Below, piece after piece: positions 17,444-59,041 of a stretch of DNA of 64,000 bases. Position numbers and translations under genes: made by a program. Source of the stretch: Eubacteriales bacterium (GTDB lineage: Bacteria > Bacillota > Clostridia > Lachnospirales > JAVBKL01); assembly GCA_031554055.1 (NCBI GenBank), contig JAVBKL010000008.1, positions 49 through 64,048 on the forward strand, written 5' to 3'. How positions within the stretch are numbered: position 1 is the first letter of the stretch; every line of letters begins with the position of its first letter. The notes under the pieces are model-generated. The model saw only the letters and a list, made by a program, of their open reading frames with translations, was not told the DNA's origin and did no database searches.

Positions 17444-17458
17444 GGTGTGAACTATCAA

Positions 17459-18493
17459 ATGGCAGTAACCATATATGACGTGGCAAAGCGGGCGGGTGTC
17501 GCCCCTGCCACTGTTTCAAAAGCACTCAATAATTATGCGGGCGTGAGTAAAAAAACGTATCAGCATGTCATGGAAACAGCAAAAGCCATGGACTTTACGC
17601 CAAACAGCACGGCACGAGCACTTATTACCAAAAAGTCTTGGTTGGTTGGTATGCTTTTTTCTGAAGAGCTTGCAACAGGCATCAAACATCCCCACTTCTC
17701 AAGTATCTTGAGCAGTGCTCAAATTCAGCTTTCAAAGGCTGGGTATGACGTGGTTTTTATTACCAACTCACTTGGTGGCGAAAAAATGACTTACTCGGAG
17801 CATTGCAAGTATCGAGGGGTTGACGGCGTTTTAATTGCTGCAAGTTGGGAATTTATTGAGGACGTGCAGTGTATTCTTGATTCGGACATCAACTGCGTTT
17901 CGGTTGAAATGCCGTACGAGAATAAATTTTCTGTACTCTCGGATAATTACGGCGGAACAACTGCCGCCATGGAATATTTATACGACATGGGGCATAGAAA
18001 AATTGCACACATCGCCGCACCGATAAAAAGCTTGGCTGGTGGTGAACGTTACCAAGGCTATGTTGATTTCTTAAAGCATAAAGGTTTAGCACATCACGAA
18101 AACTGGATTGTTGAATGTGAAGATTTCTCACCGCAAGCAGGTGTTGTTGCCGCACGAAAATTAACAGCACAATGGGGCGATGATTTGCCCACAGCAATTT
18201 GCTCGGCATACGATGAATACACCCTAGCTGCCATGAGCCATTTTTCGTCCATAGGCATAAAAATACCCGACGATATTTCTATCATCGGGTTTGACGATTT
18301 ACCAAGTGCAAAACTCGCCAACTTAACCACAATCAGACAAGAGCGTGATAAAATCGGCTGTACCGCCGCAGACTTGCTCATCGCTCAAATGAAGAAAGAG
18401 CCAATCAACGAGTCGTTCGATGTTCGAATCAAAACAGAACTCATCGAGCGAGGTACCGTTATAAAAATTAATTCGTGTCAAACAAATAAGTAA
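17459..18493 (+). CDS. LacI-family transcriptional regulator
   Basis: The HTH is MAVTIYDVAKRAGVAPATVSKALNN, followed by a periplasmic-binding-like core (IIGFDD). I chose ATG 17459; the track used GTG 17447. Confidence 0.85.
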   Translation: MAVTIYDVAKRAGVAPATVSKALNNYAGVSKKTYQHVMETAKAMDFTPNSTARALITKKSWLVGMLFSEELATGIKHPHFSSILSSAQIQLSKAGYDVVFITNSLGGEKMTYSEHCKYRGVDGVLIAASWEFIEDVQCILDSDINCVSVEMPYENKFSVLSDNYGGTTAAMEYLYDMGHRKIAHIAAPIKSLAGGERYQGYVDFLKHKGLAHHENWIVECEDFSPQAGVVAARKLTAQWGDDLPTAICSAYDEYTLAAMSHFSSIGIKIPDDISIIGFDDLPSAKLANLTTIRQERDKIGCTAADLLIAQMKKEPINESFDVRIKTELIERGTVIKINSCQTNK

Positions 18494-19010
18494 TGCTCGA
18501 TACAACATCGTTCTCAATCAAAAATTGGAGCGATGTTTTTCCTTTTTTGTAAGTGTATAAGCCCATATCGTCTTTTACATCGTCACCATACATTTCCTTG
18601 ACCGCTGCAAGTGGAGTTCCGATGGAAATTCCCTCTGGGGTTTGGCTGCTGTCGTCCACAAGTGCAACCGATAAAATATAATCGTCGCTACCCTGTGGAT
18701 AGGTGTAAACTTCAAATCCATTGTAGTAGTAGGTTTTATCAAGCCCCTCAAAGGCACAGCTCGCCGCTTCAAAATATTCTGTTGGCTCACCCAAGGCTTT
18801 TATGATTTCGTCGGCACGCGCGCCAAGCTTAATATCCACACCTTTTGCTGTGTACACAAACCCATCATAACTTGGCTCGGCCTGTGCTGTTTTGTTTTGT
18901 TCTTCTGCCACTTTTTGTGGCTCTGGTGCAGACGTTTGCTCCGCTGGTTTTTCCGCCGCACAACCCACGAGCATAAATGCCGCCACTAAACTTACTATTG
19001 TTTTTTTCAT
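18468..19010 (-). CDS. hypothetical lipoprotein, last gene of the Dlt-like operon
   Basis: Lipobox MLVGCAAEK. I recognise no domain. It starts 10 nt downstream of the SGNH-like gene. Confidence 0.6.
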   Translation of the reverse strand: MKKTIVSLVAAFMLVGCAAEKPAEQTSAPEPQKVAEEQNKTAQAEPSYDGFVYTAKGVDIKLGARADEIIKALGEPTEYFEAASCAFEGLDKTYYYNGFEVYTYPQGSDDYILSVALVDDSSQTPEGISIGTPLAAVKEMYGDDVKDDMGLYTYKKGKTSLQFLIENDVVSSITYLFDTN

Positions 19011-19020
19011 TTCAACCGCC

Positions 19021-20115
19021 CTATTCTATATTTTTAACAAAGAAAGTGAGAACTTTTCCTTTTACATCAATTTCTGCGAGCTGTGCTTCTCTCATATTAT
19101 CATATGATTTTTCTTTTTTTGCCCAAGCTTCGCTTGTTGCAGTGTCACTACGCATATCTTTGAGTTTGAAATTCTCCACAAGCTCACGTCCCAAATACTC
19201 GGACATTTTTTCTGCCCCTGTTACGTTCAAGTGAAGCCCAGCATCGTATGTGTCCACACTTAAATCGATGCCGATGCTCTCCATGTTTTCTAATGTGTTT
19301 AAATATAACAAGTCATTCTTTTTTGCGTAATCCACCATTTGTTCTTCCCATTCTGGATACCAGTATGGGTAAATGCTCGGTGCTTTTAACAACACCAGTG
19401 GAATGTCATTGGCTTTGCACAGTGCGGTGATCTTATCGAGATAGGCATAGCTGTTCTCGCCAAACTGATAGTTGTTTAGTTTTTTGCCAACAGGAATTTT
19501 TCCCACTGGTTTAATATCGTTTCGCATCATAAACCCGTTATGGGATATTTTTTCCTTCTGAAAATAATACGTGAAGTCGTCGGAGCTGATTTCTCTCCAC
19601 CTGTCATGATAACGCAGAATCGGAAATAAATATGAAATTAGCGTTTCCTCTTCGGTCATGGACGCAAGAATCGAGCCGACCTTTGAGCCAGACCACTTCA
19701 TGCCGTCAATACTCATTCGGTTGTACGCTTCGTTTTGCGGCTCGTTGTATTTCATGGCAAGCACACTAAACACCACGACTTCTGGTTTTTCATACCGCAA
19801 TGCGTCCTCCAAAAGATAATACGACTGCCAAATGAGCTGTTGTGCCGAACCTCTTATGTATGACGTTATGCCGTAGTCTTGCCAAAGTTTTACAGGCGAA
19901 ATATTTTCATACACTTCGCAGTCTCCAACAAACAAAACTTGGTGTTTGTTTTTCTTGACATCTGCATAATATTCCTCAATCAGCGAACCCTCATACACGC
20001 CAGCCATATATTTTGGCATGAACAGTTGCTGTAATGCAAACAGTGAGAGAACGCCTATTAGTATTGCCGCAACTTGAGAACCTCGCATCAAAAAATTCCT
20101 TTCCAAAAAACTCAT
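19021..20115 (-). CDS. membrane-anchored SGNH/DltD-like protein (putative acyl/aminoacyl transferase-esterase)
   Basis: An N-terminal TM, a block-I-like VLFVGDCEVY (Cys where Ser is usual) and a distal YDAGLHLN. Its start overlaps the MBOAT stop (TAATG). Confidence 0.65.
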   Translation of the reverse strand: MSFLERNFLMRGSQVAAILIGVLSLFALQQLFMPKYMAGVYEGSLIEEYYADVKKNKHQVLFVGDCEVYENISPVKLWQDYGITSYIRGSAQQLIWQSYYLLEDALRYEKPEVVVFSVLAMKYNEPQNEAYNRMSIDGMKWSGSKVGSILASMTEEETLISYLFPILRYHDRWREISSDDFTYYFQKEKISHNGFMMRNDIKPVGKIPVGKKLNNYQFGENSYAYLDKITALCKANDIPLVLLKAPSIYPYWYPEWEEQMVDYAKKNDLLYLNTLENMESIGIDLSVDTYDAGLHLNVTGAEKMSEYLGRELVENFKLKDMRSDTATSEAWAKKEKSYDNMREAQLAEIDVKGKVLTFFVKNIE

Positions 20116-21716
20116 TAGAACTGGTTGTAAATAAACTGGCTCGAGTCATACCCGATTCCATACACGCCAAACACGATAATAAATAAAACCAAAGCAGTGA
20201 TGATGCTATACCTTACAAGCGACGGAAGCTTTGCCAAATAATCCCTTGCACCACAAATGTTATCGCCATGATGTTGCAAGTACGAAACCACAAACGTCAA
20301 GCAAATTGCAAAAATGAGAACGGCATAGTCAAGTGTTGAAAGTCCAAGGTTTGTGACACCCTCAGCAATAAACTGGTCAAAACTAAAATTTGTGAGAATC
20401 GACAAATGTGCCGTTACGGTTGTTTTTACACTGGCATAACAATCAAAACTTCTAATGAAGCACATGAGCCAAAACGTTTTAAAAATTTGAACACAGCCCC
20501 AAGCAAATGTTTGGGTGAATTTTAATTTTCCAAATTTGTTAAACAGAGGTTCAAATTCTTGGCTAAGAATAATAAACACGCCGTTTGCCAAACCCCAAAC
20601 GATAAAGTTCCAGCTTGCCCCATGCCAAAATCCTGTGGAAAACCACACGACTAACGTGCAGAGGTACACGGTTGCCCGCTTGCCGATATAATCGCCGCAA
20701 TATTTTCTTGAAAGTGTTGCGAGTTTCAACATCGGTCTACAAACTGAAAGCGGATAAAACAAATATTCTCTAAACCACGCACCCATGGTGATGTGCCATC
20801 TTCTCCAATACTCCATGATGGATTTTGAATAAAATGGGTGGTTGAAGTTTTCTTTTACTTTGATTCCCAGTGCTTCTGAAATACCAATTGTGATGTCGAT
20901 GCCGCCAGTAAAATCCGCATACAGCGTAACCGCATAAAAAAACATGGCGAGTAAAACATAAATGCCTTGGTATTCCGCTGGGTTTGAAACCAGTTCACGA
21001 GTGGCAATGAGCAATCTATCTGCAATGACAAGTTTTTTAAATACACCCCAAATAATTCTTTGCACACCATAAGAAAAAGTTTTTGTTTCAAAATTATGCG
21101 GTGTACAAAGCGTTTCGTTTAAATCATCAAATCGACTGATTGGCCCTTGAATAATTTGTGGAAAAAACGACGTGAACAACGCAAACTTAAATACATTTGG
21201 CTCGGCTTTGTACTTGCCCCTGTACACATCAATGATATAGCTCATGGTTTTAAATGTGTAAAATGAGATGCCGAGCGGAAGCAAAAAGTTTAAGAGTTGT
21301 AACTCGCCTGTTTTTCCAAAAAAATCAAGCACGGAGTTGACATTGCCAATAAAAAAGTCAGTGTATTTCACAACACCAAGGATTCCAAAATTTATAAATA
21401 AGCAAAGCAGCAAGTATTTCCATCTCTCCGATTTAACGGTTGCCTTGTAACTCTTTTTTTCTTCCTTGGACAGTGTTTCTTTGTTTTGTTTCAGATATTC
21501 TTCTTGTCTATCATGGATCGAACTGATTTTTCGTCCGATTGCGTATGTACTCACAATGGTTAAGCCGATGTAAATCAAGTTGCTCACGCCCGAAAGTGCA
21601 TAGAAAATAAAACTCGCAAGAAGCAAAAGCTTCCATTGATACGCTTTGGGGATTGTGTAATACAAAACAAAAGTTACGACCAAAAACAGGGTAAAGCTAA
21701 ACGATGTAAAGAGCAT
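20115..21716 (-). CDS. MBOAT family membrane O-acyltransferase (DltB/AlgI-like)
   Basis: 533 aa and polytopic, with FYSKSIMEYWRRWHITMGAWFREYLFYPL and WFSTGFWHGASWNF, which give the conserved His context. Confidence 0.85.
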   Translation of the reverse strand: MLFTSFSFTLFLVVTFVLYYTIPKAYQWKLLLLASFIFYALSGVSNLIYIGLTIVSTYAIGRKISSIHDRQEEYLKQNKETLSKEEKKSYKATVKSERWKYLLLCLFINFGILGVVKYTDFFIGNVNSVLDFFGKTGELQLLNFLLPLGISFYTFKTMSYIIDVYRGKYKAEPNVFKFALFTSFFPQIIQGPISRFDDLNETLCTPHNFETKTFSYGVQRIIWGVFKKLVIADRLLIATRELVSNPAEYQGIYVLLAMFFYAVTLYADFTGGIDITIGISEALGIKVKENFNHPFYSKSIMEYWRRWHITMGAWFREYLFYPLSVCRPMLKLATLSRKYCGDYIGKRATVYLCTLVVWFSTGFWHGASWNFIVWGLANGVFIILSQEFEPLFNKFGKLKFTQTFAWGCVQIFKTFWLMCFIRSFDCYASVKTTVTAHLSILTNFSFDQFIAEGVTNLGLSTLDYAVLIFAICLTFVVSYLQHHGDNICGARDYLAKLPSLVRYSIITALVLFIIVFGVYGIGYDSSQFIYNQF

Positions 21717-21724
21717 AATTCACC

Positions 21725-21952
21725 TTATTCGTCCGACAACTTTTCGATTAATGCATGAAGGGCTTTTGCGGAATTAAAGTTTACTGGAATAATTTGTTCG
21801 GCTGGAATCTGCACGTCCATTTCCTCGCTGATTTCTGCAATGATCGAAATAATGTCAAACGAATCTAGGATACCATCGTCTATTAAATGCTCATGGTTAT
21901 GAAAGTCAACATCAGGGTGCAAGTCAGATAAAATCTTAATCAATTCGTCCAT
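21725..21952 (-). CDS. DltC-like carrier protein
   Basis: 75 aa and acidic. GILDSFDIISII is a phosphopantetheine-Ser motif. Confidence 0.8.
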   Translation of the reverse strand: MDELIKILSDLHPDVDFHNHEHLIDDGILDSFDIISIIAEISEEMDVQIPAEQIIPVNFNSAKALHALIEKLSDE

Positions 21953-21971
21953 AAATTTTCTCCCTTTGGTT

Positions 21972-23477
21972 TTAGCTCAAACCTTGCTTGAGCAAATTGC
22001 GGTCTATTTTTCCGTTTGGTGTAAGCGGCATATTTTCTAGTTTAAAAATTTGGTTTGGAATCATATAACGTGGCAGCTTTTCTTTTAAGTATGTAGTGAC
22101 CTCGGGTTTTTCGCAATCCCCCACGTAATACAATATGATTTTCTTGCTCGCATTATCAAAAATACAGCAAGTGGAGCTGATTCCATCTTTCATGTTTAGA
22201 GCCAGCTCGATTTCACCAAGCTCAATGCGATGCCCCATGTGTTTGATTTGGTAATCCTTGCGTGATACAAAAACAAGTTCGCCCAGTTCGTTAAACCGTC
22301 CCAAGTCACCTGTTAAATAAATCAGTTCTGGATACGCTGTCACAAGTGGATTTTGTATAAAGCTCTCACTTGTTTTCTCGGCATTGTTGTAATAGCCAAG
22401 GGTTAAGGCTGTTCCCCTTATACAAATTTCGCCGACACCATTTGCTTCTGTTACTCGCTTGTTGTCCTCAATTAAAATAATTTCTGTATTGCAAAACGGT
22501 CTGCCAATCGGAATCACTTCATCAAGTGCGAAATCCCTGTTAACTTCAAAGTAACAAGACATTCCTGTTGCTTCTGTCGGGCCGTATAAATTGATAAACC
22601 TCGTCTGTGGCAAATGCTCACGCCAAAGTTGTAGTTGCTTAATTGGGAACACTTCACTGCCAAACGCAATTGTCCGCAGATACTTTGGAACAATGGATTT
22701 GAATGTGCCAAAGCTCGACACAAGTGTTAAGGCAGAAGCCACCCAACAAATTGTATTAATTTTATTTTCGTTTAAAAACTCCAAAAGCTTAACTGGAAAC
22801 ATAAACAATTCTTTGGGGACAAAGTAAGTGGTTGCCCCAAATTTAAAAGTCGGGAACAGTTCTTTTAAGCAAGCGTCCACATAAAGCGGTGCTTGGTTTC
22901 CAAAAATCGTATCGCTGTCAATTTTTAAAACAGAGGAAAGCTGTTCAATATAATCAATGACCGAACGGTGACAAGCCACAACGCCCTTGGGTACTCCTGT
23001 TGAACCAGACGTAAATACAACATAAATCGGGTCAATATCAATGGCTAGATCTCTAATTTTTAAAAGTCGTACATCATCAATTTCGGTTTCATAAATTTCT
23101 TCGTATTGAAAAAGTTCGCCAGAAAAATCTAGCCCATCAATTGACTTGACCGAATCCGCATCACAGATCACCGCACGGGGGTTTAAGCTTTTAAAAATAA
23201 GTTCGATTCGGTGGCGTGGCATTTCATCATCAAGTGGGACATAAAAATTTCCGCTGTTGATAACGCCAAAAAAAGCCGCAACTGTCTGTGGCTTTTTGCT
23301 CATAAAGACAACAATCGGTTCTTTGTAAAAGTTCCGTTTGGCAAGAAACGTGCCAATGCTTCTGGCATTCGTATGGATTTGCTTAAAGGTAAGTGCAACG
23401 CCGCTTCCAACAAACGCTGGTTTATCGGGGCAAGTATTTACAATTTCGTCAACATAACTCATTACATTTATTTGCAT
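21972..23477 (-). CDS. stand-alone amino-acid adenylation enzyme (DltA/NRPS A-domain-like carrier-protein ligase)
   Basis: FTSGSTGVPKG, NLYGPTEAT, GEICIRGTALTLGYY, YLTGDLG, QIKHMGHRIELGEIE and PNGKIDR. ATG 23477 has an AGGTG SD 9 nt upstream and overlaps the racemase 3' end by 10 nt. Confidence 0.85.
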   Translation of the reverse strand: MQINVMSYVDEIVNTCPDKPAFVGSGVALTFKQIHTNARSIGTFLAKRNFYKEPIVVFMSKKPQTVAAFFGVINSGNFYVPLDDEMPRHRIELIFKSLNPRAVICDADSVKSIDGLDFSGELFQYEEIYETEIDDVRLLKIRDLAIDIDPIYVVFTSGSTGVPKGVVACHRSVIDYIEQLSSVLKIDSDTIFGNQAPLYVDACLKELFPTFKFGATTYFVPKELFMFPVKLLEFLNENKINTICWVASALTLVSSFGTFKSIVPKYLRTIAFGSEVFPIKQLQLWREHLPQTRFINLYGPTEATGMSCYFEVNRDFALDEVIPIGRPFCNTEIILIEDNKRVTEANGVGEICIRGTALTLGYYNNAEKTSESFIQNPLVTAYPELIYLTGDLGRFNELGELVFVSRKDYQIKHMGHRIELGEIELALNMKDGISSTCCIFDNASKKIILYYVGDCEKPEVTTYLKEKLPRYMIPNQIFKLENMPLTPNGKIDRNLLKQGLS

Positions 23478-24157
23478 TTTACACCGCACCTCTCAAGTGA
23501 TTTCGCCGCAAGAACTTCTAGTGCGTCTATATAGGTTTCGTTTAAATGATGTTCCTTGTTGATAATCGAAAGCTCTGTACAGCCAAGAATTATTTTTTCT
23601 GCCCCGCTTTTACTCAAGCTTTCCGCAACAGCCGAAAAATCGAATAAACAAATGGGTTCATCGGCTTTTATATTATAGATCGTTTCCATCACTTTATTCT
23701 GCATGGGTACATCAGGAACAATCGTTTTGATGCCGCATTCAGAAAGCTTTGTCTGCAAAAAACCACTTCGTATCGTGCCTGTGGTTGCGAGGATTCCCAC
23801 GCTTTTAATATTTTGGTTTTGCAAATGCTCGCACAAAGCGTCCACCATATTGATAATCGGTAGGCTTGTACTCGCTTGCAGCTCATCAAAAAAATAATGA
23901 GCCGTCACGCAAGGCATAGAAACAAATTCCATTCCAGCATTTTCTAAAACCTTGATTGCATTTTTAATCGGCACAAGCGGACTTACATCGCTTTCGCCAA
24001 GCATAAACGCCGTCCTATCTGGCGTATCAGGCACAGAGTACAACAAAAGCTCAATGTGTTCTTGATCCTTTTGTGCGTCTGTCATTTTTGTGAGCAGTTC
24101 GTAAAAGTACGCACTAGCCAGCGGCCCAAGACCTCCTACTATGCCTAGCTTTTTCAT
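23468..24157 (-). CDS. Asp/Glu/hydantoin racemase family protein (aspartate-racemase-like)
   Basis: LGIVGGLGPLAS plus the two catalytic-Cys motifs SMPCVTAH and ILGCTELS. A GGAGG SD is present. Confidence 0.85.
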   Translation of the reverse strand: MKKLGIVGGLGPLASAYFYELLTKMTDAQKDQEHIELLLYSVPDTPDRTAFMLGESDVSPLVPIKNAIKVLENAGMEFVSMPCVTAHYFFDELQASTSLPIINMVDALCEHLQNQNIKSVGILATTGTIRSGFLQTKLSECGIKTIVPDVPMQNKVMETIYNIKADEPICLFDFSAVAESLSKSGAEKIILGCTELSIINKEHHLNETYIDALEVLAAKSLERCGVKCK

Positions 24158-24186
24158 TTTAATTCCTCCAGATATTGATCTGCCGT

Positions 24187-25833
24187 CTACTGTTCAACTG
24201 AAAACGAATAGAGCGTTTTATCATAAACATAATAATTGTCTCGTCTTTCAGCAGTGTACTTCTCCGCTTGTGATTCTGTAAACATACAACCGTTAAACAC
24301 AGTTCTGTATGGGGTTGAATCATAGTGATACCAACCTTCGCCCAGATTGACAAGGCTCCAGAAATGCCTTGCACGCCCACCCATGCGGGTCACCGGAATA
24401 TTTTCGATTCCCACTCGGTTCATGAGTAGTTCGGACACCGCATAAAAAGTGTAGCAGTCACCCTTATGTATTTTAAACGCACGATAAGCACCCAGTATCA
24501 CAGAGTCTTTACTTCCCGCCGAAACATAACTGACATGTCCACGCACCCAAGCGTAAATCGCACGTAGTTTTTCTTCTTGGCTCATGCCTTCGTTTACAAT
24601 TTTTGATAGAACTTCATCAGCCATTGCATAAATGGCATCATCTTCTGGATTTGTCACTGTGATTGAACCTTTGCTGCTTGTCTTGTTTCCCGCAAGGTCT
24701 GTTGCCGAATAACTTACTTCATACTTACCCGCTGTGGATAAATCCACTTGGGAGCTGTCCACTTGTAGTGCAATCGGCTCGCCACTGTTATCACGAACCG
24801 TCACGCCTTCTTTGTAAGAAACCGAGGAGTTAATGTGACAAGTTTTATCCAAGTCTCCTGTAATTAGTGGGGCTTCTGTGTCGTCATTCACTTTGAGAAG
24901 TGAAGTCACTTTGTTTTTGTTGTTCGCACTGTCGGTTAAAACGATGTCAACACCATGCTCGCCCACTTGCATAAAGTTCGGCTCCACATCAAATGTGATG
25001 GCCACTTCCGATTGGTCGAACACAGCTTTTACAAAGTCTGCCGCTTTTAATTTTTTGCCTTTATAAACCATTTGGCTTACCGCTTCTGCGGTGGGTGCTG
25101 TTGTGTCCACCACCCTAAATTCTGTTTGACCTTGATTTTTGCTTTCGTCGGCGATTTCAATGATGACTGGGATTGTATTTACTTTTGTAAAATCGAATTT
25201 TACTCGATTAGCAAAATGAAGCGTTATGCCGTCCGACCCTTCAAAACTTTCGATAAAGTCACGTGGCATAACCTCATAACTTCCGCTTCCGGCTTCAACA
25301 GATAGAAAAGGCTTGAGAATTATGACCGATAAATTTGCTTTTAACTTGGTTTCGTTTCCGCCTTGGTCTGTGAGCGAAAGTTCAACTTCTTGCGTTCCCG
25401 CTTTGTTAAAATCGGGTGGTGTTACAAATTCTGTCGAAACGTCCGTACCATCCACAATGTTTTTTACAAAGGTATTTGCAATCAATGCAGTGCCTGCAAA
25501 TATTGTTTGGTTAACCGCTTCTGCAGTCGGCGAAACAGTATCTTCAATTATCAATAGAGAACTGTATTTTTTTCTGTCGGCTAGCAACTCAACTTGTGTT
25601 TCGCCAACTTTATTCATATCAATCGTACTTATATCTGCTGCGTACTTATAAACGACTTTGCTATTTTTTTCGGTATGAAAAAACTCGGATGCCTCGGGAA
25701 GTTTTGTCCCCACTTCGACAGTTAAATCTTTTTTGGGCGTTCCACCTCTCGACCATAAAAAAAACGCTAAAGCCCCAAGGACGAGTAACGCTAAAACGGA
25801 TAGTATAACCATGTAAATGTGCTTCTTCTGCAT
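24187..25833 (-). CDS. membrane-anchored surface protein with Ig-like repeats and a C-terminal transglutaminase-like cysteine protease core
   Basis: An N-terminal TM and the repeated motif D-T-x-x-P-T-AEAV-x-Q. The C-terminus has KGDCYTFYAV...ARHFWSLV...WYHYDSTP, which is a Cys-His-Asp core. Confidence 0.75.
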   Translation of the reverse strand: MQKKHIYMVILSVLALLVLGALAFFLWSRGGTPKKDLTVEVGTKLPEASEFFHTEKNSKVVYKYAADISTIDMNKVGETQVELLADRKKYSSLLIIEDTVSPTAEAVNQTIFAGTALIANTFVKNIVDGTDVSTEFVTPPDFNKAGTQEVELSLTDQGGNETKLKANLSVIILKPFLSVEAGSGSYEVMPRDFIESFEGSDGITLHFANRVKFDFTKVNTIPVIIEIADESKNQGQTEFRVVDTTAPTAEAVSQMVYKGKKLKAADFVKAVFDQSEVAITFDVEPNFMQVGEHGVDIVLTDSANNKNKVTSLLKVNDDTEAPLITGDLDKTCHINSSVSYKEGVTVRDNSGEPIALQVDSSQVDLSTAGKYEVSYSATDLAGNKTSSKGSITVTNPEDDAIYAMADEVLSKIVNEGMSQEEKLRAIYAWVRGHVSYVSAGSKDSVILGAYRAFKIHKGDCYTFYAVSELLMNRVGIENIPVTRMGGRARHFWSLVNLGEGWYHYDSTPYRTVFNGCMFTESQAEKYTAERRDNYYVYDKTLYSFSVEQ

Positions 25834-25969
25834 ACAATCTCACTGACCCTTTTCTGTTTAAAAATGAATTGCTTTTACACAAAAGTGATTATATCAATCC
25901 AAATTCGCATTGTCAAATTTTGTTGCAAGATTTTAAAAAAATACTCGATTTATTTTCTTTCTTGGCATA

Positions 25970-25998
25970 TTGTAATTTGATTTTGGCTGTGCTACAAT
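25970..25998 (+). promoter_or_regulatory. sigma-A-like promoter (extended -10) of the uracil permease gene
   Basis: TTGTAA (25970-25975), a 17 nt spacer ending in TGC, then TACAAT (25993-25998). Confidence 0.45.
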
Positions 25999-26025
25999 GT
26001 TACGAATTTTGAGAGGAGAGAGACT

Positions 26026-27249
26026 ATGCTTACTTTTTTAAAAAATGATCCAGAGTTTCAAATGCCAGCTTATAAGAAAATTATTCTCGGTGTTCAACAC
26101 ACATTTACAATGTTCGGAGCCACTGTACTCGTGCCTATTTTAACTGGTATGAATATTTCAGTGGCTTTATTTATGGCCGGAGCATCTACGCTTATTTTTC
26201 ACCTCTTGACAAAGGGCAAGGTTCCCGCTTTCATGGGCTCGTCATTTGCTTTTATTGCTCCGACGCTTGTGGTTTCTGCCATGCCAAATTACGGACTGCC
26301 CTACGCCCAAGGCGGAATTTTTGTCGCTGGTATTATTTATTTGATATTTGCCCTTCTCATTCACTTCTTCGGTGTTCAAAAAATACTTGATTTCTTCCCA
26401 CCTGTTGTCAACGGTTCCATTATTGTCATCATCGGCCTTATGCTTGCCCCCACCGCCATTAACATGGCAAAAACCAACTGGATGCTCGCACTTGTAAGTT
26501 TTTCAGTTGTTGCCGCCGTCAGCGTCTTTGGGCGTGGATTTCTCCAAATTATACCAGTCATTCTCGGCTTGCTTGCTGGATACTTTGTTGCCGTCTTAAC
26601 CGGCAACGTGGATTTTACTCGGGTAATCGTTGCCGATTGGTTTGGGTTACCAAAGTTTACAATTGCAAAGTTTGATTTAACCACAATTATGATTATCGCT
26701 CCTGTTGCCATCGCCACCATTGTTGAGCACATCGGCGGCATCATGGCAATCAGTGCTACGTGCAACAAGGATTTTGCAAACGAGCCAGGGTTGCACCGCA
26801 CAACGTTTGGCGATGGAATTGCCATTTGTGTTTCTTCTGCCTTTGGCGGCCCAGCCGCAACAACCTATGCAGAAAACACAGGCGTCTTGGCACTCACAAA
26901 AGTATTTAACCCCCAAGTCATGCGAATCGCCGCAGTCATTGCCATTTGCTTGGGTGTTTTGCCAAAGCTCGGTGCTCTGATTCAAACCATTCCAGAAGGG
27001 GTTGTGGGCGGTATCTCCATCATCTTATTTGGAATGATTGCCTCCATCGGTACTCGAACCTTCGTAGAAAACAAAGTTGATTTTACAAAATCGAGAAATT
27101 TAATTGTTGCTGCTGTCATTTTCGTTTTAGGACTTGGTGGTGCCGTTGTTCCTGTTAGTATCGGAGAAATAAATTTCACCATTCAAGGAATTGCATTGGC
27201 AGCAATTGCTGGTATCTTCCTTAATAAGGTCTTGCCACAAGATAGATAA
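26026..27249 (+). CDS. uraA: uracil permease (NCS2 family)
   Basis: 407 aa and polytopic, with ILGVQHTFTMFGATVLVPILTG, PAFMGSSFAFIAP and ENTGVLALT. Confidence 0.85.
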   Translation: MLTFLKNDPEFQMPAYKKIILGVQHTFTMFGATVLVPILTGMNISVALFMAGASTLIFHLLTKGKVPAFMGSSFAFIAPTLVVSAMPNYGLPYAQGGIFVAGIIYLIFALLIHFFGVQKILDFFPPVVNGSIIVIIGLMLAPTAINMAKTNWMLALVSFSVVAAVSVFGRGFLQIIPVILGLLAGYFVAVLTGNVDFTRVIVADWFGLPKFTIAKFDLTTIMIIAPVAIATIVEHIGGIMAISATCNKDFANEPGLHRTTFGDGIAICVSSAFGGPAATTYAENTGVLALTKVFNPQVMRIAAVIAICLGVLPKLGALIQTIPEGVVGGISIILFGMIASIGTRTFVENKVDFTKSRNLIVAAVIFVLGLGGAVVPVSIGEINFTIQGIALAAIAGIFLNKVLPQDR

Positions 27250-27274: not shown

Positions 27275-27309
27275 AGATGCTATGTTAAAATCATGGCATC
27301 TGTTTTTTT
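27275..27309 (+). terminator. rho-independent terminator after the uracil permease gene
   Basis: Stem AGATGCTATG / CATGGCATCT with one G-U pair, followed by GTTTTTTT. Confidence 0.7.
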
Positions 27310-27335
27310 ATTGTTTGCTTTATGGAGGAGTTCGA

Positions 27336-28769
27336 ATGAAAAAAATTATTGGAGCAGTTTTGGCAGTCACCATGTTGTCCGCCTCGGTGCTCGGGGCTCA
27401 ATCAAAAGATATATACCTTTACACAGGAATGAAAAATGATGGGGACTTTAAAAACGCACTTTACTCGCAATCAGGAATCTTTGTTGCAAATGAAAAAATA
27501 TTTGTTGCCGACACGTACAACGACGCTTTGCATATTTTAGAAGGAACCGATTCAAAAATAATTGGTAAATCCGGCTCAAGTTTAATCTCTTACGAGTTAT
27601 CCGGCGGTTTTTTAGATGGAAGTGAAACCACGGCAGAATTTCGCAAGCCCACCGATGTTGCCGTAAGCCAAGGCGGAGATGTGTATGTTTGTGATTCTGG
27701 AAACAACGTCATTCGCAAACTCTCAAAAGGAGTTGTGTATACAGTTTCTGGAAGTGGAAAAGCCGGCTATAAAAATGGAAAAGAAAGTTCCGTTATGTTC
27801 AATGCACCATATTCACTGGCGATTGCCCCTGATGGAAAAATATATGTGTCCGATACTCTAAACCACTGTATCCGTGTGATTGAAACTTCGGGCGAAGTTA
27901 AACTTTTTGCGGGTAAACCTGAAACAAGCGGCTTTGCCGACGGAGATTTACTTTCTGCACAGTTTTTTGAACCATGCGGGATAACAATTGGAAACGACGG
28001 TGCTATTTATGTTGCGGACTCGGCTAACCACGCCATTCGAAAAATTTTAAATAACAAAGTCACAACCGTTTGTGGAAAGCCCCAGAACCTAGATTCTGAA
28101 AGCGGATACTATGACGGCGGATATGTGGACGGTGCTGCTGCCAGTTTTAATTTTCCTAAAGACCTAGCCGTTACAGACAGCGGAGACATTTATGTTGCCG
28201 ACACATTAAACCATGCTGTACGCCTCATTAAAAACGGAGCAACCAAAACCATAGTTGGAAACGGCGAGCCCGATAAATTTTACTTAAATACCGAAAACAT
28301 GAAGCTCTCAAGACCCAGTGGAATTTTTGTGACAGGCGATAAGCTTTATGTTTCTGATACTGTAAACAATACTGTCGTTCAGTTGAAAATCACAGATGAA
28401 CTCTTAAAAGGTCGAAACTCCAGAGAATCCATGCTAAACCGTACAGGCGTTACAGAGTTTGGCGAGCTTAAAGTTTTTGTGGATGGCACGCAAATTGATT
28501 TCTCTGCATTAAATCCTTGGAACGACCCCGACAATGTTTTTTTGCCAGTGCGTGGAATTTTAGAGGCGATGGGTTATGCCGTCCAGTGGAACGACACAGG
28601 CAAAAGTGTAACTGCAACAAAAGCTGATGCGAGCATTATTTTAAGCACAGACCAGTTTGAACTGAAAAACGGACGTACCGTTATCACATTGTCTGAATTT
28701 TTAAAATTATTTAAGGCAACTTACGAATGGTTTGCCGAACAGAATATTGTCGCTATCGAAACGAAATAA
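27336..28769 (+). CDS. secreted NHL-repeat protein with a C-terminal copper-amine-oxidase-N-like (stalk) domain
   Basis: A signal peptide and six NHL-type repeats (VADTYNDALHIL, VCDSGNNVIRKL, VSDTLNHCIRVI, VADSANHAIRKI, VADTLNHAVRLI, VSDTVNNTVVQL). The tail is VFLPVRGILEAMGYAVQWND. Confidence 0.8.
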   Translation: MKKIIGAVLAVTMLSASVLGAQSKDIYLYTGMKNDGDFKNALYSQSGIFVANEKIFVADTYNDALHILEGTDSKIIGKSGSSLISYELSGGFLDGSETTAEFRKPTDVAVSQGGDVYVCDSGNNVIRKLSKGVVYTVSGSGKAGYKNGKESSVMFNAPYSLAIAPDGKIYVSDTLNHCIRVIETSGEVKLFAGKPETSGFADGDLLSAQFFEPCGITIGNDGAIYVADSANHAIRKILNNKVTTVCGKPQNLDSESGYYDGGYVDGAAASFNFPKDLAVTDSGDIYVADTLNHAVRLIKNGATKTIVGNGEPDKFYLNTENMKLSRPSGIFVTGDKLYVSDTVNNTVVQLKITDELLKGRNSRESMLNRTGVTEFGELKVFVDGTQIDFSALNPWNDPDNVFLPVRGILEAMGYAVQWNDTGKSVTATKADASIILSTDQFELKNGRTVITLSEFLKLFKATYEWFAEQNIVAIETK

Positions 28770-28789
28770 AATTAAATGGGGTTGACTGT

Positions 28790-30598
28790 ATGTTAAGTAG
28801 TAAGAAAAATTTCATATACCGAATGGTATCCTTGATTCTTGTTTTTACGCTTTGTATTTCTTTGTCGGTGGTTTCTTATGCCGCTGATAAAACACTCAAT
28901 GTGTCCTATGTAAAGGGAACCGTAACCGTTTTCAAAAGCGGCGGTTCCAAAGAGTTTTCTGCTTATAAAAATATGAAACTAAAAAAGGGCGACAAAATAA
29001 AAACAGGTGTTAACTCAACCGCCACCCTCGTTCTCGATGACCGTGAAATGATTGTGGGCTCTAACGCAGTCGTTGTTGTCGATAAAGCAACCGGTAGCGG
29101 CAAGGTAGAAACACTTGCACTCTCCATCATTGAGGGCAGTGTAAAAAACAAAGTAAGTTCACCGCTTACCACAAACTCAACCAACACAATCAAAACAACC
29201 AACACGGTTGCGGGTGTTCGTGGCACGGAGTTTGTAACCAGTTATTCCAAAGACCAGCAAACCAAAATTGTAACGTTTGAAGGCAATGTAAAAATGGATT
29301 TTATCGAACCAGACGGCAACAAACAAGACACCAATGTTTATGTAAACCGTGACGGCGTTGTTGGTGTGCCACCACAAAACTTTGACTTGCCAATGAACTT
29401 GAAAGATATGGATGTTGGAATTTTAGACTCACTTGCAGAAAATCTTGCAATCATTCAGTCTCACCCTGACTTCTTCAAAGGAATCGAGGTTGTTTTAGAA
29501 GCCAAGCACCAAGAAGCAGAAAAAATGGTCATAGAAGCAAAACATATGCAAGAAACAAAAGAGAATCTTCCACCACCTAAATACGATTCAAAACCGCAAG
29601 ACGCACCACAGCCGTCGGCTCCACCTACAAATGATCGTGACACAAGCGAGCATACGCCAGCACCGATACCGACTTCAACTACAATCACCGACCCAACCCC
29701 AACACCAGTCGCAACTCCCATACCAACCGAATCACCCACTGACATAGAAGTTGATTGGGAGTCTGGAAACAATTCTCATGGTGGTGGAACAATAAAAGGA
29801 ACCATGCTAGCTACTGATTTGGAATATGGGCAAACTTTATCAGAGAGCGAGCTCTCGGGCACGTTGGTACAAAGACTCACAGGTTGGGGGTTTTTTGACG
29901 GAACCTTTAGCTGGAAAACGCCAAGCAAAGTCCCAGAATCTGGAAACGAATTGCAAACCGTAAAGTTTACTCCTAGATGGTCTTGGTTTATGAAATCATT
30001 TTCTGTTGACATTCGTGTCCTTGTATCGCCAAGAGCAATCGAAGTAACAGGACTTACAGCACTTAATAAATCTCTTGACGGAACAAACTGTGCAACAATC
30101 GCAACAGGTTCTGCTGTATTTGACAGAGTGGCCACAGGTGATTCGTTGTATATTGCAACTTGTGAAGCTTTTTTTGATGATAGCAATGCCGGAACAAATA
30201 AACCTGTAAGCTTTTCGAGCATTACCCTTGGTGGAGAAAGAGCTTCAAACTACGCTTTGAACACACCATCGGGCTTAACTGCAAATATTTTTACAACCCC
30301 AGCCGCCCGCTGCGAAAAACTTGTTATTGATAACATCCGTCATACCGCTACCTTTGAAATATCTTTTGCAAAGCCGCATAATTTATTGTCGGACTTTACT
30401 ATAAGCGAAGACTTAGCCCCCTATGGTGTATCCGCCTATCCACACCATTGTGTCTCAGACACTACAACAGGTGGGACAATACTGACAATTGAGTTGACAC
30501 TTGATTCCACTAAAGACGAATTTTATGGGGACTACATTATTAGTGATGGTCATGAATCTTTTTGGTTTAGCGTCGCCGAATTATTAGCGACGAATTAG
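28790..30598 (+). CDS. secreted FecR-domain protein with a Pro/Thr linker and a YDG-type domain
   Basis: The FecR-like part is VKGTVTVFKSGGSKEF...LKKGDKIKTGVNSTATLVLDD. The linker is PAPIPTSTTITDPTPTPVATPIPTESP. The YDG-like part is VTGLTALNKSLDGTNCA...FFDDSNAGTNKPV...GGERASNYAL. Confidence 0.65.
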   Translation: MLSSKKNFIYRMVSLILVFTLCISLSVVSYAADKTLNVSYVKGTVTVFKSGGSKEFSAYKNMKLKKGDKIKTGVNSTATLVLDDREMIVGSNAVVVVDKATGSGKVETLALSIIEGSVKNKVSSPLTTNSTNTIKTTNTVAGVRGTEFVTSYSKDQQTKIVTFEGNVKMDFIEPDGNKQDTNVYVNRDGVVGVPPQNFDLPMNLKDMDVGILDSLAENLAIIQSHPDFFKGIEVVLEAKHQEAEKMVIEAKHMQETKENLPPPKYDSKPQDAPQPSAPPTNDRDTSEHTPAPIPTSTTITDPTPTPVATPIPTESPTDIEVDWESGNNSHGGGTIKGTMLATDLEYGQTLSESELSGTLVQRLTGWGFFDGTFSWKTPSKVPESGNELQTVKFTPRWSWFMKSFSVDIRVLVSPRAIEVTGLTALNKSLDGTNCATIATGSAVFDRVATGDSLYIATCEAFFDDSNAGTNKPVSFSSITLGGERASNYALNTPSGLTANIFTTPAARCEKLVIDNIRHTATFEISFAKPHNLLSDFTISEDLAPYGVSAYPHHCVSDTTTGGTILTIELTLDSTKDEFYGDYIISDGHESFWFSVAELLATN

Positions 30599-45058: not shown

Positions 45059-47836
45059 TTGAAAAAAACAAAGGCGTTCGCTTTGTTATATGAGAAGCTT
45101 GATATTTTTAATAAAGTTGTGCTCTCTTTAATTGCAATTTCAATCGTCATACTTTTGTCTCTTTATTTTTTGTTTATGAAACCAAACCTTGAGCAACTGG
45201 AGTTTAACGAGACCGAGGAGCAAGCTTGGAGTTGTATTCAACTCGGGAGATTGCTCATTGCGTCGCAAAACTATATGCCGGGCGTTACCAAAGACTGGTC
45301 GGTTTGGGACGATACGTACCAATTTGTGGTCGGCGAGAACCCTACGTATGAAAAAGAAAACTTTGCTGTCTCACCGCTTTCTTTGTTTGACCAAAGTTTT
45401 TTATTTATTTCCGACAACAATGACAAGATTGTGAGCCAGACCTACCGTGATATAAATAGCGGTGAGTTTACTGACCCTCCTGTTGATTTCTTACCGCTCA
45501 TTAAAAGACTTCGAACTTTTATGTCAGAAAATACGAACCATGAATTTGTAAAAAGTGGTTTTATTGAATATAATGGTACTTTTTATTTTATAAGTTCTGC
45601 GCCCATATTAAAGTCGGACGAAACTGGCCCGACTGTGGGTATGCTTACTTTTGGAAAAGAAATTACACCCCAAAGCTTGATGGAACTTGCTAACAAATAC
45701 AACATTGAATGTATTGAACTCAAAGCCACCACACTTGAGAGCTTGACATTGAACCCAAGTGAACTAGAAACACTCAAAGAAGCTAATATTTTTGTTAAAC
45801 TTGATGAAACAAACAAGCATGGTTTGGCTTATCGGCTTGCTGCCGATATTTTTGGAAACCATAAAATAGTTCTTACCGCAACCAATCAGATAAACGATTA
45901 CCTAGATGTGAAACATCGGTATAACACATTGTTTGTTATGGGAATCATGGCTACGTTGTTTGCTTTTTTCGTGCTATACTTAGGTGTTCGCCAAATTGTT
46001 TTGTTGCCTGTAAGAAAATTAACCAAACAAGTGGAGCAAGTTCATTTAAAAGAACAAGACGGTATCCGTGCAGACGATTTTAGCGGTAAGGAGTTTCATT
46101 ACCTCGCCGAGTCCATATCAAACCTACTGGAGACAATTGAAAAGAATAACAATAAAATTATGCAATCCAATAATTCATTGAGAGTTTATTCACAGGCGGT
46201 TGAGTCTGCTAATAACGAAATTATAATTATGTCATCGGAAGGTATTGTGGAGTATGTCAACTCCATTACCGACAGGCGTTCTCCCTTTGGTGTTGGTTCA
46301 TACATCGGTAAACACGCCTCGGAGTGTATCTCCCCAGTTTATGGAGACCAACTTTCGCAAGCATTAGTTGTTTTACAGGCAGGCGAACCTTATCGTGCAG
46401 AAATCGTGTTGCCTAGAAAAGGTGGATATAGTACCATCTGTGAAGTTTCACTTTCGGCAATCAAAAGCAGTACTGGTAAATATGAACACTTTGTTGCCAT
46501 TGTCCGTGACATAGACGAGCAGAAAAAGTTTGAAGAAAAGCTTTTGAATACCACTCGTCATGACTTACTTACCAATCTTCCAAACCGAGGATATTTTGCC
46601 GAGCTTTTTGCCGAGCGAGTTTTATCCTTACAGCCAGAAACTCCTTACTTATGCGTATTGTTTATTGACGTGGATGATTTTAAATATGTGAACGATTCGT
46701 ATGGCCACGACTCTGGTGACATACTCATTTGTGAAATTGCAAGTCGTATGCAAAATAGGTTGCCCGAAAACTGTGTTGTATCAAGGGCAAGCGGTGATGA
46801 GTTTTATGTTTTGGCAGACATGCGAGATGCTGAAGCCGTACAAGAGATTGCTTCTTTGATGTTTGAACTTTTTGAAGAACCATTTGCTGTGAACAATCAT
46901 TTATTAACCGTGAGTGTGTCCATTGGCTCAAGCGTTTATCCAACCGATTCAACCGACCTTCGTGCATTACTCAAGAACGCTGATATGGCAATGTATGTTG
47001 CAAAATCTTTAAGCCATTCAAATGGGTATTGTGCATTCACAAGCCAGATTGAACACGACTTAATGAAACGCCTTTCAATGGTAAACAAACTGCGGGATTC
47101 AATCGCTCAATGCATGGACGAATTTGTTGCAAACTATCAACCAAAACTCGACCCGCTAACAAATGAAGTGGTGGGTTGCGAAGCTCTTTTGCGGTGGCAT
47201 TCCCCTGATGGAAATGTTTCGCCTGTGGAATTTATTCCTGTTGCAGAATCAAATGGACTCATTTGGGAACTTAGCCGCCATATCCTCATGCGATCCACTA
47301 AATTTCAAAAAGAACTTGAGAGCCTTGGCTTTTGCATGAAGATGTCCGTAAATATGTCTCCTCAAGTTATGCTTCGTTCAGATTTTATGAACATGATTGA
47401 TGAAGCCATAAGAGAATCAAACATAAATTCCTCCATGCTTGACATTGAAATTACAGAAGAGACTCTCGCAAGCGATGTTGTTCGTCTTGAGAAAGTGATA
47501 AAAGAACTGCACGCAAGAAAAATCACTGTAACGATTGATGATTTTGGAACTGGCTATTCTTCCATTGGATATTTTAAGCAGTTTAAATTAAACGGGCTTA
47601 AAATTGACAAGAAATTTATAGACCACTTGCCGCAAAACTTAGATTCAGTTGCAATTGTTGATGCGGTTTGGGCGATGGCTCGTGCCATGAATTTGACCGT
47701 GACCGCTGAGGGTGTCGAGACAAAAGAGCAGTTTGATTATTTAAAAGAAATGAAAATACAAGAAATTCAAGGCTATTATGTAAGCAAGCCTTTATCTACC
47801 AATGATTTTATTGAGTTTATGAAGAAGCAATCCTAA
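45059..47836 (+). CDS. CHASE4-PAS-GGDEF-EAL membrane signalling protein
   Basis: The CHASE4-like part is TKDWSVWDDTYQFV. A TM and a PAS domain follow. The GGDEF domain has SGDEF at the A-site (LPNRGYF, IDVDDFKYVNDSYGH). The EAL domain has CEALLRW, DDFGTGYSS, KIDKKF and EGVET. The start is TTG 45059 after TAAGGAGG. Confidence 0.85.
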   Translation: MKKTKAFALLYEKLDIFNKVVLSLIAISIVILLSLYFLFMKPNLEQLEFNETEEQAWSCIQLGRLLIASQNYMPGVTKDWSVWDDTYQFVVGENPTYEKENFAVSPLSLFDQSFLFISDNNDKIVSQTYRDINSGEFTDPPVDFLPLIKRLRTFMSENTNHEFVKSGFIEYNGTFYFISSAPILKSDETGPTVGMLTFGKEITPQSLMELANKYNIECIELKATTLESLTLNPSELETLKEANIFVKLDETNKHGLAYRLAADIFGNHKIVLTATNQINDYLDVKHRYNTLFVMGIMATLFAFFVLYLGVRQIVLLPVRKLTKQVEQVHLKEQDGIRADDFSGKEFHYLAESISNLLETIEKNNNKIMQSNNSLRVYSQAVESANNEIIIMSSEGIVEYVNSITDRRSPFGVGSYIGKHASECISPVYGDQLSQALVVLQAGEPYRAEIVLPRKGGYSTICEVSLSAIKSSTGKYEHFVAIVRDIDEQKKFEEKLLNTTRHDLLTNLPNRGYFAELFAERVLSLQPETPYLCVLFIDVDDFKYVNDSYGHDSGDILICEIASRMQNRLPENCVVSRASGDEFYVLADMRDAEAVQEIASLMFELFEEPFAVNNHLLTVSVSIGSSVYPTDSTDLRALLKNADMAMYVAKSLSHSNGYCAFTSQIEHDLMKRLSMVNKLRDSIAQCMDEFVANYQPKLDPLTNEVVGCEALLRWHSPDGNVSPVEFIPVAESNGLIWELSRHILMRSTKFQKELESLGFCMKMSVNMSPQVMLRSDFMNMIDEAIRESNINSSMLDIEITEETLASDVVRLEKVIKELHARKITVTIDDFGTGYSSIGYFKQFKLNGLKIDKKFIDHLPQNLDSVAIVDAVWAMARAMNLTVTAEGVETKEQFDYLKEMKIQEIQGYYVSKPLSTNDFIEFMKKQS

Positions 47837-52650: not shown

Positions 52651-52704
52651 TCAGTATTATAGATTTAGCTTTGTATAAAAAAAATATTCTAAGGGGGAAT
52701 GATT

Positions 52705-59005: not shown

Positions 59006-59041
59006 ACAATCTTGACATCGAAAGAAAACGAGGTGTTTTCC

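Follow-up and report, generated by a model that had tools for sequence, protein, structure and literature searches.

What is the function of a gene cluster that resembles the D-alanylation (Dlt) machinery of the bacterial envelope yet carries a racemase of its own? The question is raised by a locus from a member of the Clostridia (Eubacteriales bacterium, assembly GCA_031554055.1), which lies in a 64,000-nucleotide stretch of contig JAVBKL010000008.1 that is referred to here as the window. An earlier note on this DNA described six co-directional genes, and all six open reading frames (ORFs) are present where it had placed them. They encode a racemase, a stand-alone amino acid adenylation enzyme (the ligase), a carrier protein, a membrane-bound O-acyltransferase (MBOAT), a membrane-anchored protein with a predicted SGNH fold, and a lipoprotein. 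A seventh co-directional gene, absent from that note, encodes a transglutaminase-core protein and ends 29 nucleotides upstream of the racemase gene. The seven genes probably form an operon for the carrier-protein-dependent attachment of an amino acid outside the membrane, in a manner analogous to Dlt but with members of other protein families.

The first point to decide is whether these genes belong together. When one genome was scanned for each species, relatives of the ligase with the signatures Y[VF]DACLKE or QIKHMGHR were encoded in at least 598 stretches. Synteny was counted in the best 80 of these loci, which were searched with the seven window proteins and come from Lachnospiraceae, Oscillospiraceae, Acutalibacteraceae, Faecousia, Flavonifractor, Agathobacter, Mediterraneibacter, Acetatifactor, and other groups. 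Gene order is nearly constant across this set, and 42 of the 46 loci that have enough flanking sequence contain the full set of seven. Separate look-ups recovered the same seven genes in Herbinix luporum and two other lineages. Unbiased clustering of the remaining ORFs in the 80 loci yielded no eighth recurrent gene; only antisense shadow ORFs recur. The genomic surroundings vary among the loci, the module is constant, and no genes for the synthesis of an acceptor are linked to it. The module is self-contained. Complete modules of the Clostridia type were also seen in metagenome-assembled genomes labeled Anaerolineaceae and Bacilli (L010, SHOH01000095.1, and L022), and these labels probably reflect errors of binning or taxonomy rather than true spread outside Clostridia.

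The link between racemase and ligase that the earlier note had proposed is borne out by the gene-neighborhood count. A racemase gene is found in 71 of the 78 loci with enough upstream sequence (91%). It lies directly upstream of the ligase gene in 63 of them, and also in L072 and L082, which were scored as having it elsewhere solely through the calling of ORF extents. In six loci the gene is located elsewhere, and in seven it is absent. Four clusters are split (L051, L054, L075, and L059). In these, the genes for racemase, ligase, transglutaminase-core protein, and lipoprotein stay together, and those for carrier, MBOAT, and SGNH protein move as a block. Rearranged modules, which include these four as well as L047, L076, and L085, have the carrier, MBOAT, and SGNH genes several kilobases away or the lipoprotein gene between those for racemase and ligase. 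A narrow-pattern scan of metagenomes returned 21 distant relatives of aspartate racemase (30-50% identity), none of which adjoins such a ligase, including those at 40% identity or less, and this is weak negative evidence.

Might the racemase be an unrelated neighbor, for example one that serves D-aspartate cross-bridges in peptidoglycan? Such cross-bridges exist in some Firmicutes, and the seven loci that lack the gene are compatible with a chance association. However, the gene is on the same strand and directly upstream of the ligase gene in 63 to 65 of 78 species across Lachnospiraceae, Oscillospiraceae, and Acutalibacteraceae. In the window its stop codon and the ligase start codon share a 10-nucleotide overlap (ATGCAAATAA). 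In split clusters the racemase gene follows the ligase rather than the MBOAT, and its association persists where the surroundings change. Synteny largely refutes the notion of an unrelated neighbor, which is hardly credible.

The next question is what the racemase acts upon. The protein scores 133.7 bits with the Asp_Glu_race profile and 201.6 bits with TIGR00035 (cut-off 93.1), and its top match in the PDB is the aspartate racemase of Pyrococcus horikoshii (1JFL, 148 bits). The motifs MPCVTAH and LGCTELS, which the earlier note had singled out as bearing the catalytic cysteines, indeed align to Cys82 and Cys194 of 1JFL. Residues in the PDR and IKA motifs align to Arg48 and Lys164 of the same enzyme, which presumably bind the side-chain carboxylate, and are kept in at least 95% of 76 relatives. 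Other models fit weakly, with 31.6 bits for glutamate racemase and 53 bits for the YgeA type (cut-off 417). Membership of the aspartate racemase family, together with the two cysteines and the Arg and Lys equivalents, suggests activity on aspartate. In bacteria D-alanine is supplied by the housekeeping enzyme Alr and D-glutamate by MurI, whereas D-aspartate would need a dedicated racemase.

The ligase has the AMP-binding core (PF00501, 198.9 bits) and the residues at the positions of Asp235, which serves the alpha-amino group, and Lys517 that place it among the adenylation domains of the nonribosomal peptide synthetase (NRPS) type in the ANL superfamily. Its score with the amino acid adenylation model AA-adenyl-dom (TIGR01733) is 300.3 bits, just below the cut-off of 317.4. 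It falls far short of the DltA equivalog models TIGR01734 and NF003417, at 254.7 bits against a cut-off of 559.85 and 266.5 bits against 476. NRPS adenylation domains (GrsA-PheA, 212 bits) match it at or above the level of DltA (170-180 bits).

Residues of the specificity pocket were identified in a MAFFT alignment of 84 family members with PheA (1AMU) and DltA from Bacillus subtilis and B. cereus, whose sequences were checked with the PDB. The ten-residue code is DAKCAGLGMK in the window ligase, compared with DLMT(M/L)CTVAK in DltA and DAWTIAAICK in PheA. In PheA numbering, no variation occurs among the 84 relatives at Asp235, Ala236, Lys239, Cys278, Leu322, Gly330, or Lys517, and positions 299, 301, and 331 are 93-95% conserved. 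In the numbering of the ligase itself, Asp201 and Lys490 are invariant, and Lys205 corresponds to PheA position 239. A hand alignment in the earlier note had placed seven pocket residues correctly (235, 236, 239, 278, 322, 330, and 331). At 299 and 301 it was shifted by one, and these positions are Ala271 and Gly273 rather than Ile and Phe. None of the eight variable positions of the code is shared with DltA. Its Cys268/269, which sets selectivity for D-alanine, corresponds to position 301, where the window ligase has Gly. With Ala, Gly, and Gly in place of Met/Leu, Cys, and Val, the pocket is larger than that of DltA, and it contains a lysine. The view that this ligase stands apart from classical DltA is upheld by the failed equivalog models, the lack of shared variable positions, and the invariant Lys239.

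Codes for comparison were taken from 861 adenylation domains in 150 NRPSs that were the top matches of a search of representative proteins with the ligase. These matches are all multi-module enzymes, ranked by summed domain scores, and sister clades are out of view. Lys239 occurs in 21 of the 861 domains, and 11 of the 21 have the Glu-type code DAKD[IL]GVVDK, in agreement with the earlier suggestion that Lys239 is a feature of Glu codes. The pocket favors a substrate with an anionic side chain, although it does not tell which one. Assignment of a substrate by the nearest-neighbor code was tried and discarded as uninformative, the best match agreeing at 5 of 10 positions.

The carrier protein scores 21.8 bits with the PP-binding profile (cut-off 20.8) and fails both DltC models (30.3 bits against 68 and 19.6 against 52.35). 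Its motif iLDSfDI, with the attachment serine, is kept in 77 relatives. The MBOAT is a member of its superfamily (PF03062, 45.8 bits against a cut-off of 27), but it does not reach the cut-off of the DltB model TIGR04091 (154.6 bits against 375). DltB is its only sequence relative in the PDB (97 bits), and RWHIT aligns to RWHMS of DltB. The catalytic His of this motif is conserved in 75 relatives.

The MBOAT's C terminus has two extra hydrophobic, presumably transmembrane, segments (residues 459-477 and 504-522) and then ends in FIYNQF. This motif, which the earlier note had missed, is kept as sqFIYnqF in the same 75 relatives. No other ORF in the window ends in FxYxxF, and no separate ORF resembling DltX is present there. 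FXYXXF is an acyl shuttle whose tyrosine is transiently acylated, as shown experimentally for DltX and PatA (PMC12148441). The same text places the motif on the microprotein DltX in Dlt systems and at the fused C terminus of acetyl-CoA-dependent MBOATs such as PatA, and describes the latter systems as lacking a carrier protein (PMC12148441). With its terminal motif after two added helices, the window protein belongs to the class of MBOATs that act with SGNH partners through an acyl-tyrosine shuttle, and by analogy its tyrosine may be acylated as well. The module unites a carrier protein with a shuttle motif that is fused to the MBOAT.

These results bear on the idea that the cluster is a divergent Dlt system of Clostridia, in which the ligase loads D-alanine and the racemase either supplies D-alanine or is incidental. 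The succession of ligase, carrier, MBOAT, and SGNH protein follows Dlt logic, DltB is the sole relative of known structure for the MBOAT, and one source annotates a homolog of the ligase (P0081) as 'D-alanine--poly(phosphoribitol) ligase subunit 1'. However, four Dlt equivalog models all fail by wide margins. The pocket has lost every variable residue of DltA, including the selectivity cysteine, and its invariant lysine would have no role with alanine. In addition, Alr already supplies D-alanine, which leaves unexplained why a racemase of the aspartate type is linked to the ligase so consistently. A Dlt system of this kind is quite improbable.

The protein encoded by gene 6 has no Pfam or NCBIfam family hit, and for DltD none appears even at E values up to 10. 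An AlphaFold (AF2) model with a predicted local distance difference test (pLDDT) value of 88.6 was used for a Foldseek search, and its top matches are GDSL/SGNH hydrolases (probability 1.00). PatB (7TJB) and DltD (6PFX) appear at lower ranks with E values of 2e-3 to 6e-3, and DltD itself is at rank 33 (E 4e-3, TM-score 0.39). Its homologs show weak similarity to Lipase_GDSL_2 (PF13472), at the block V end, and to DUF1574. Other features of the SGNH fold, which is of the flavodoxin-like alpha/beta type with blocks I, II, III, and V, are also recognizable, including a GDC motif after beta-strand 1 and the invariant residues Gly80, Asn123, and His286. The description of this protein as SGNH/DltD-like in the earlier note is supported by the model as far as the fold is concerned. 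It does not hold for membership of the DltD family, and Cys takes the place of Ser.

This substitution concerns the nucleophile position of block I. Gly55, Asp56, Cys57, and Glu58 are invariant together with His286 of block V, and the cysteine of this GDCE motif is present in 40 of 40 rows of the alignment and in at least 95% of 68 relatives derived from the loci. The serine expected at this position of the fold is not found in the gene 6 protein. By comparison, block I has a serine in 29 of 30 representative SGNH structures, and the exception is the non-enzymatic Oskar domain (PMC10792757).

Two further extracytoplasmic proteins complete the module. The gene 1 product has an N-terminal membrane anchor, a Bact_surface_Ig-like region (35 bits), and a C-terminal Transglut_core domain (34.3 bits) whose Cys-His-Asp motifs (GDC, H.W, and WyH.D) are conserved in 67 relatives. 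The gene is found in 76 of the 80 loci. A search of PDB sequences with this protein matched only its Ig-like repeats and found no relative of the transglutaminase core. In L018 (5676-9151) the gene is present as a tandem duplicate, with two 558-residue paralogs encoded 5' of the racemase gene, and coordinates point to the same duplication in L020 and L028. The lipoprotein, whose gene is the last of the cluster in most loci, is modeled with a disordered linker and a tandem alpha-beta repeat domain (pLDDT 83.7). Its best Foldseek matches are 4IFA, the DUF4309 protein YjgB (4YGT), YfeY (2QZB), and a BLIP-like protein (3D4E), so that the predicted fold resembles those of the BLIP and DUF4309 proteins. 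The invariant residues of the lipoprotein are Cys17 of the lipobox and the sequence Ser84-Cys85-Ala86-Phe87 (SCAF). An invariant cysteine is found in each of the three extracytoplasmic proteins of the module, namely the SGNH protein, the transglutaminase-core protein, and the lipoprotein (Cys85, besides lipobox Cys17).

A cysteine nucleophile in combination with a conserved transglutaminase-like partner means that the end product could be an amide rather than an ester. A thioester on the cysteine of either protein might be resolved by an amine, contributed by a side chain in the stem peptide of peptidoglycan, by a surface protein, or by an amino sugar, resulting in N-aminoacylation or a cross-link. 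N-acyltransferases and transamidases typically form thioester acyl-enzymes, and the transglutaminase-core protein, with its intact triad, is the most constant partner in the module and is duplicated in L018. That no acceptor-synthesis genes are linked would suit a universal acceptor such as peptidoglycan, and the cysteine is invariant where serine is otherwise universal among the 30 representative structures (PMC10792757). Against this, the proposal is derived from residue chemistry alone, cysteine nucleophiles can also carry out O-acyl transfer, and the transglutaminase-core domain has no sequence relative in the PDB. Moreover, the characterized MBOAT-SGNH pairs all make O-esters (PMC12148441). 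An amide product is on balance unlikely, although it deserves to be kept in mind. A more specific version is still more doubtful. In it, D-aspartate would pass from the carrier thioester to a tyrosyl ester on the MBOAT tail and then to a cysteinyl thioester on the SGNH protein, before the transglutaminase-like partner assists in fixing it to peptidoglycan or to a surface protein, by an amide bond or cross-link in place of a labile ester on teichoic acid.

Taken together with the characterized systems, these features suggest a pathway in five steps. Its chemistry is inferred throughout by analogy with Dlt and PatA/PatB, and the amino acid and its acceptor are likewise inferred. In the first step, the racemase would convert a cytoplasmic L-amino acid, most likely L-aspartate, to its D form. 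The ligase, whose pocket combines Lys239 with small residues at positions 299, 301, and 330, would then activate the D-amino acid at its alpha-carboxyl group and load it onto the carrier as a thioester. In the third step, the MBOAT would take the aminoacyl group from the phosphopantetheine of the carrier at the cytoplasmic face and deliver it on the outer side to its own FIYNQF tyrosine, a task performed by DltX in Dlt systems. The invariant block I cysteine of the SGNH protein would next accept the group as a thioester and hand it on to the final acceptor. The transglutaminase-core protein and the BLIP-like lipoprotein would be obligate accessories that may serve in acceptor recognition, transfer, trimming, or regulation.

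D-aspartate is the most likely amino acid because the racemase is of the aspartate type, because D-aspartate, in contrast to D-alanine and D-glutamate, needs a dedicated racemase, and because the enlarged pocket has an invariant lysine. The chances that this identification is right are about even. Another acidic or polar D-amino acid is a weaker but serious candidate, and D-alanine is improbable. As a tentative possibility, the machinery may work as proposed on D-glutamate, D-cysteate or cysteine sulfinate, D-asparagine, D-serine, or D-homoserine. Among NRPS codes Lys239 marks those for Glu and not those for Asp, and the small residues at 299, 301, and 330 could admit a longer side chain. For D-glutamate, however, a dedicated racemase would be redundant, since MurI already supplies it in all bacteria that make peptidoglycan. 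The racemase is also far closer to 1JFL than to the glutamate racemase and YgeA-type models.

Several points weigh against D-aspartate or against parts of the proposed pathway. The CuyB equivalog model for cysteate racemase (NF052483) scores the window racemase at 196.1 bits, marginally above its cut-off of 190. CuyB is defined by its neighbors, the CuyA sulfo-lyase and an SDF transporter (PMC11193023), but neither of these is encoded in the window or in the 80 related loci. The Asp/Glu superfamily also includes the broad-specificity racemases RacX and YgeA (PMC12838360). No code in the survey is more than 5/10 alike to that of the window ligase, so similarity does not provide a substrate. The seven loci without a racemase have the same ligase code, which implies that the racemase is dispensable in cis. 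As no T-box or other regulatory RNA accompanies the cluster in the window or in the 14 related loci scanned with Rfam, regulation does not name the amino acid either. In the SGNH protein, the acid and the His of block V have the spacing D-x-x-x-H, one residue more than the canonical D-x-x-H.

The earlier note had expected the modification to have the opposite charge effect to D-alanylation. This expectation is not sustained, since an ester of D-aspartate or D-glutamate keeps a free alpha-amino group and would be a zwitterion with a net charge of about zero. If D-aspartate is attached as an alpha-ester, the contrast with D-alanylation would be the loss of the +1 charge and not its reversal. Concerning the acceptor, the window also encodes a 1427-residue protein with a C-terminal SLH domain (52699-56982). 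Its presence makes it probable that the cell wall of the organism includes a secondary polymer to which SLH domains bind, and this polymer is one conceivable acceptor.

The arrangement of the genes in the window (Table 1) is that of a single transcription unit. Gene 1 closely precedes the racemase gene and has a perfect promoter sequence just 5' of it, which argues for an operon of seven genes. This putative promoter is the sole perfect consensus site within positions 18000-26300. Of the junctions listed in the earlier note, the overlap of racemase and ligase (-10) and the gaps between ligase and carrier (+19), carrier and MBOAT (+8), and SGNH protein and lipoprotein (+10) are as described. 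The MBOAT/SGNH junction of -1 applies only to the longest ORF of gene 6 (19021-20115). Translation more likely starts at the ATG at position 20088, leaving a gap of 26 nucleotides, because this start agrees with the N termini of homologs and has the Shine-Dalgarno sequence GGAAAGGA 8 nucleotides upstream.

Table 1. Features of the seven-gene module (positions are relative to the window; all module genes are on the minus strand)
Feature	Position	Strand	Basis or remark
Putative sigma-70-type promoter, TTGACA-17-TATAAT with TG extension	25888..25916	-	12/12 consensus; about 50 nt 5' of gene 1
Gene 1: transglutaminase-core/Ig-repeat membrane-anchored extracellular protein, 548 aa	24187..25833	-	Pfam domains
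Gene 2: PLP (pyridoxal phosphate)-independent two-Cys racemase, aspartate racemase type, 229 aa	23468..24157	-	TIGR00035
Gene 3: stand-alone amino acid adenylation enzyme (ligase), 501 aa, code DAKCAGLGMK	21972..23477	-	AMP-binding
Gene 4: phosphopantetheine carrier protein, 75 aa, attachment Ser in LDSFD	21725..21952	-	PP-binding
Gene 5: MBOAT, 533 aa, catalytic His in RWHIT	20115..21716	-	MBOAT profile
Codons of the MBOAT terminal FIYNQF (FxYxxF acyl-shuttle hexapeptide)	20118..20135	-	Motif match
Gene 6: N-terminally transmembrane-anchored protein, predicted SGNH fold, 355 aa from ATG 20088	19021..20088	-	AlphaFold model and Foldseek
Gene 7: lipoprotein, 180 aa, lipobox LVGC	18468..19010	-	Lipobox, predicted fold

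At its 3' end the lipoprotein gene converges with a gene for a LacI-family regulator (17447-18493, plus strand), and the two 3' ends overlap by 26 nucleotides (18468-18493). For the operon, the sole terminator-like hairpin (18290-18265, minus strand) lies within the coding sequence of this regulator. With Rfam, no structured RNA was detected in the window, and neither there nor in 14 related loci does a T-box or riboswitch lie 5' of the cluster. The flanks of related loci contain three tandem Gut-1 RNA copies, a cobalamin riboswitch, and a TwoAYGGAY RNA (L049 20985-21273, L053 10254-10465, and L076 5137-5302), none of which is associated with the cluster. PADLOC gave no link between the cluster and defense systems. 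Elsewhere in the window are two cyclic-di-GMP signaling proteins with CHASE4-PAS-GGDEF-EAL and 7TM-GGDEF-HD architectures (45059-47836 and 59012-61084) and a Ser/Thr protein kinase (47884-50247). Two secreted or anchored proteins (27282-30598), one with NHL repeats and a Cu_amine_oxidN1 domain and the other with FecR and YDG domains, are encoded downstream of a xanthine/uracil permease gene.

How does the module compare with known systems? It shares with Dlt an adenylation enzyme, a small phosphopantetheinyl carrier, an MBOAT with a conserved His, the FxYxxF tyrosine shuttle, and a transmembrane-anchored protein of predicted SGNH fold. However, no protein of the module reaches the family thresholds of DltA, DltB, DltC, or DltD. 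The genes occur in the order ligase, carrier, MBOAT, and SGNH, whereas the classical dltABCD order is A-B-C-D. In place of DltX and a serine nucleophile, there is a shuttle fused to the MBOAT and a cysteine in the SGNH protein. The ligase pocket is entirely unlike that of DltA, and the module additionally encodes a dedicated racemase of the aspartate type as well as the transglutaminase-core and BLIP-like proteins.

The O-acetylation-type systems PatA/PatB, AlgI/AlgJ/AlgX, and WssH/WssI resemble the module in having two extra C-terminal transmembrane helices on the MBOAT, a terminal FxYxxF motif, and a transmembrane-anchored SGNH partner. The shuttle motif of PatA from Neisseria gonorrhoeae is FIYANF, compared with FIYNQF in the window. 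Such systems use acetyl-CoA and are described as having no carrier (PMC12148441), whereas the module encodes a ligase and a carrier between its racemase and its MBOAT. Their SGNH partners have a serine where that of the module has a cysteine.

Two other systems provide partial precedents. AlmEFG of Vibrio cholerae attaches glycine or diglycine to lipid A by means of the DltA-like AlmE, which has an altered pocket and loads an amino acid other than alanine onto the carrier AlmF. Ligase-carrier pairs of the Dlt type can evidently be retargeted to other amino acids. AlmG belongs to the lysophospholipid-acyltransferase family and acts at the cytoplasmic face, and the system is Gram-negative and has no MBOAT, SGNH protein, or racemase. 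In Racfm/Aslfm of Enterococcus faecium and RacD/AslA of Lactococcus, a gene for a PLP-independent aspartate racemase lies beside one for a D-aspartate-activating enzyme that serves peptidoglycan cross-bridges. Aslfm and AslA are ATP-grasp enzymes that activate the beta-carboxyl group in the cytoplasm and transfer the residue to UDP-MurNAc-pentapeptide. In contrast, activation in the module would be carried out by an ANL-superfamily enzyme and followed by a carrier and a transmembrane relay.

Full-text literature searches found no description of a racemase-ligase-carrier-MBOAT-SGNH cluster and no report of D-aspartyl esters on polymers of Clostridia. Members of the families are annotated as 'amino acid adenylation domain-containing protein', 'SGNH/GDSL hydrolase family protein', 'hypothetical protein', or, once, DltA. 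The racemase scores just above the cut-off of the CuyB model, and JGI record P0081 gives a ligase homolog the D-alanine ligase name quoted above; both names are probably wrong for proteins of the module. In annotation pipelines, such genes may easily come out as DltA, DltB, or 'cysteate racemase', and the system would thereby be hidden.

D-alanylation by Dlt is the textbook case of envelope aminoacylation and a determinant of cationic peptide resistance and host interaction. The module would be a case in which the relay logic of Dlt serves, in rebuilt form, another D-amino acid, which is probably acidic. Within Clostridia it occurs in some 600 species or more, among them members of Agathobacter, Mediterraneibacter, Acetatifactor, Flavonifractor, and Faecousia, genera from the gut of humans and animals. 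The module bridges two classes of MBOAT-SGNH systems, those that depend on a carrier and have a separate DltX and those that depend on acyl-CoA and have a fused shuttle. It also provides a natural SGNH protein with a predicted cysteine nucleophile. If D-aspartate is indeed relayed from tyrosine to cysteine and set as an amide or cross-link, the module would represent a previously unrecognized type of envelope chemistry in Clostridia of the gut and of biogas communities.

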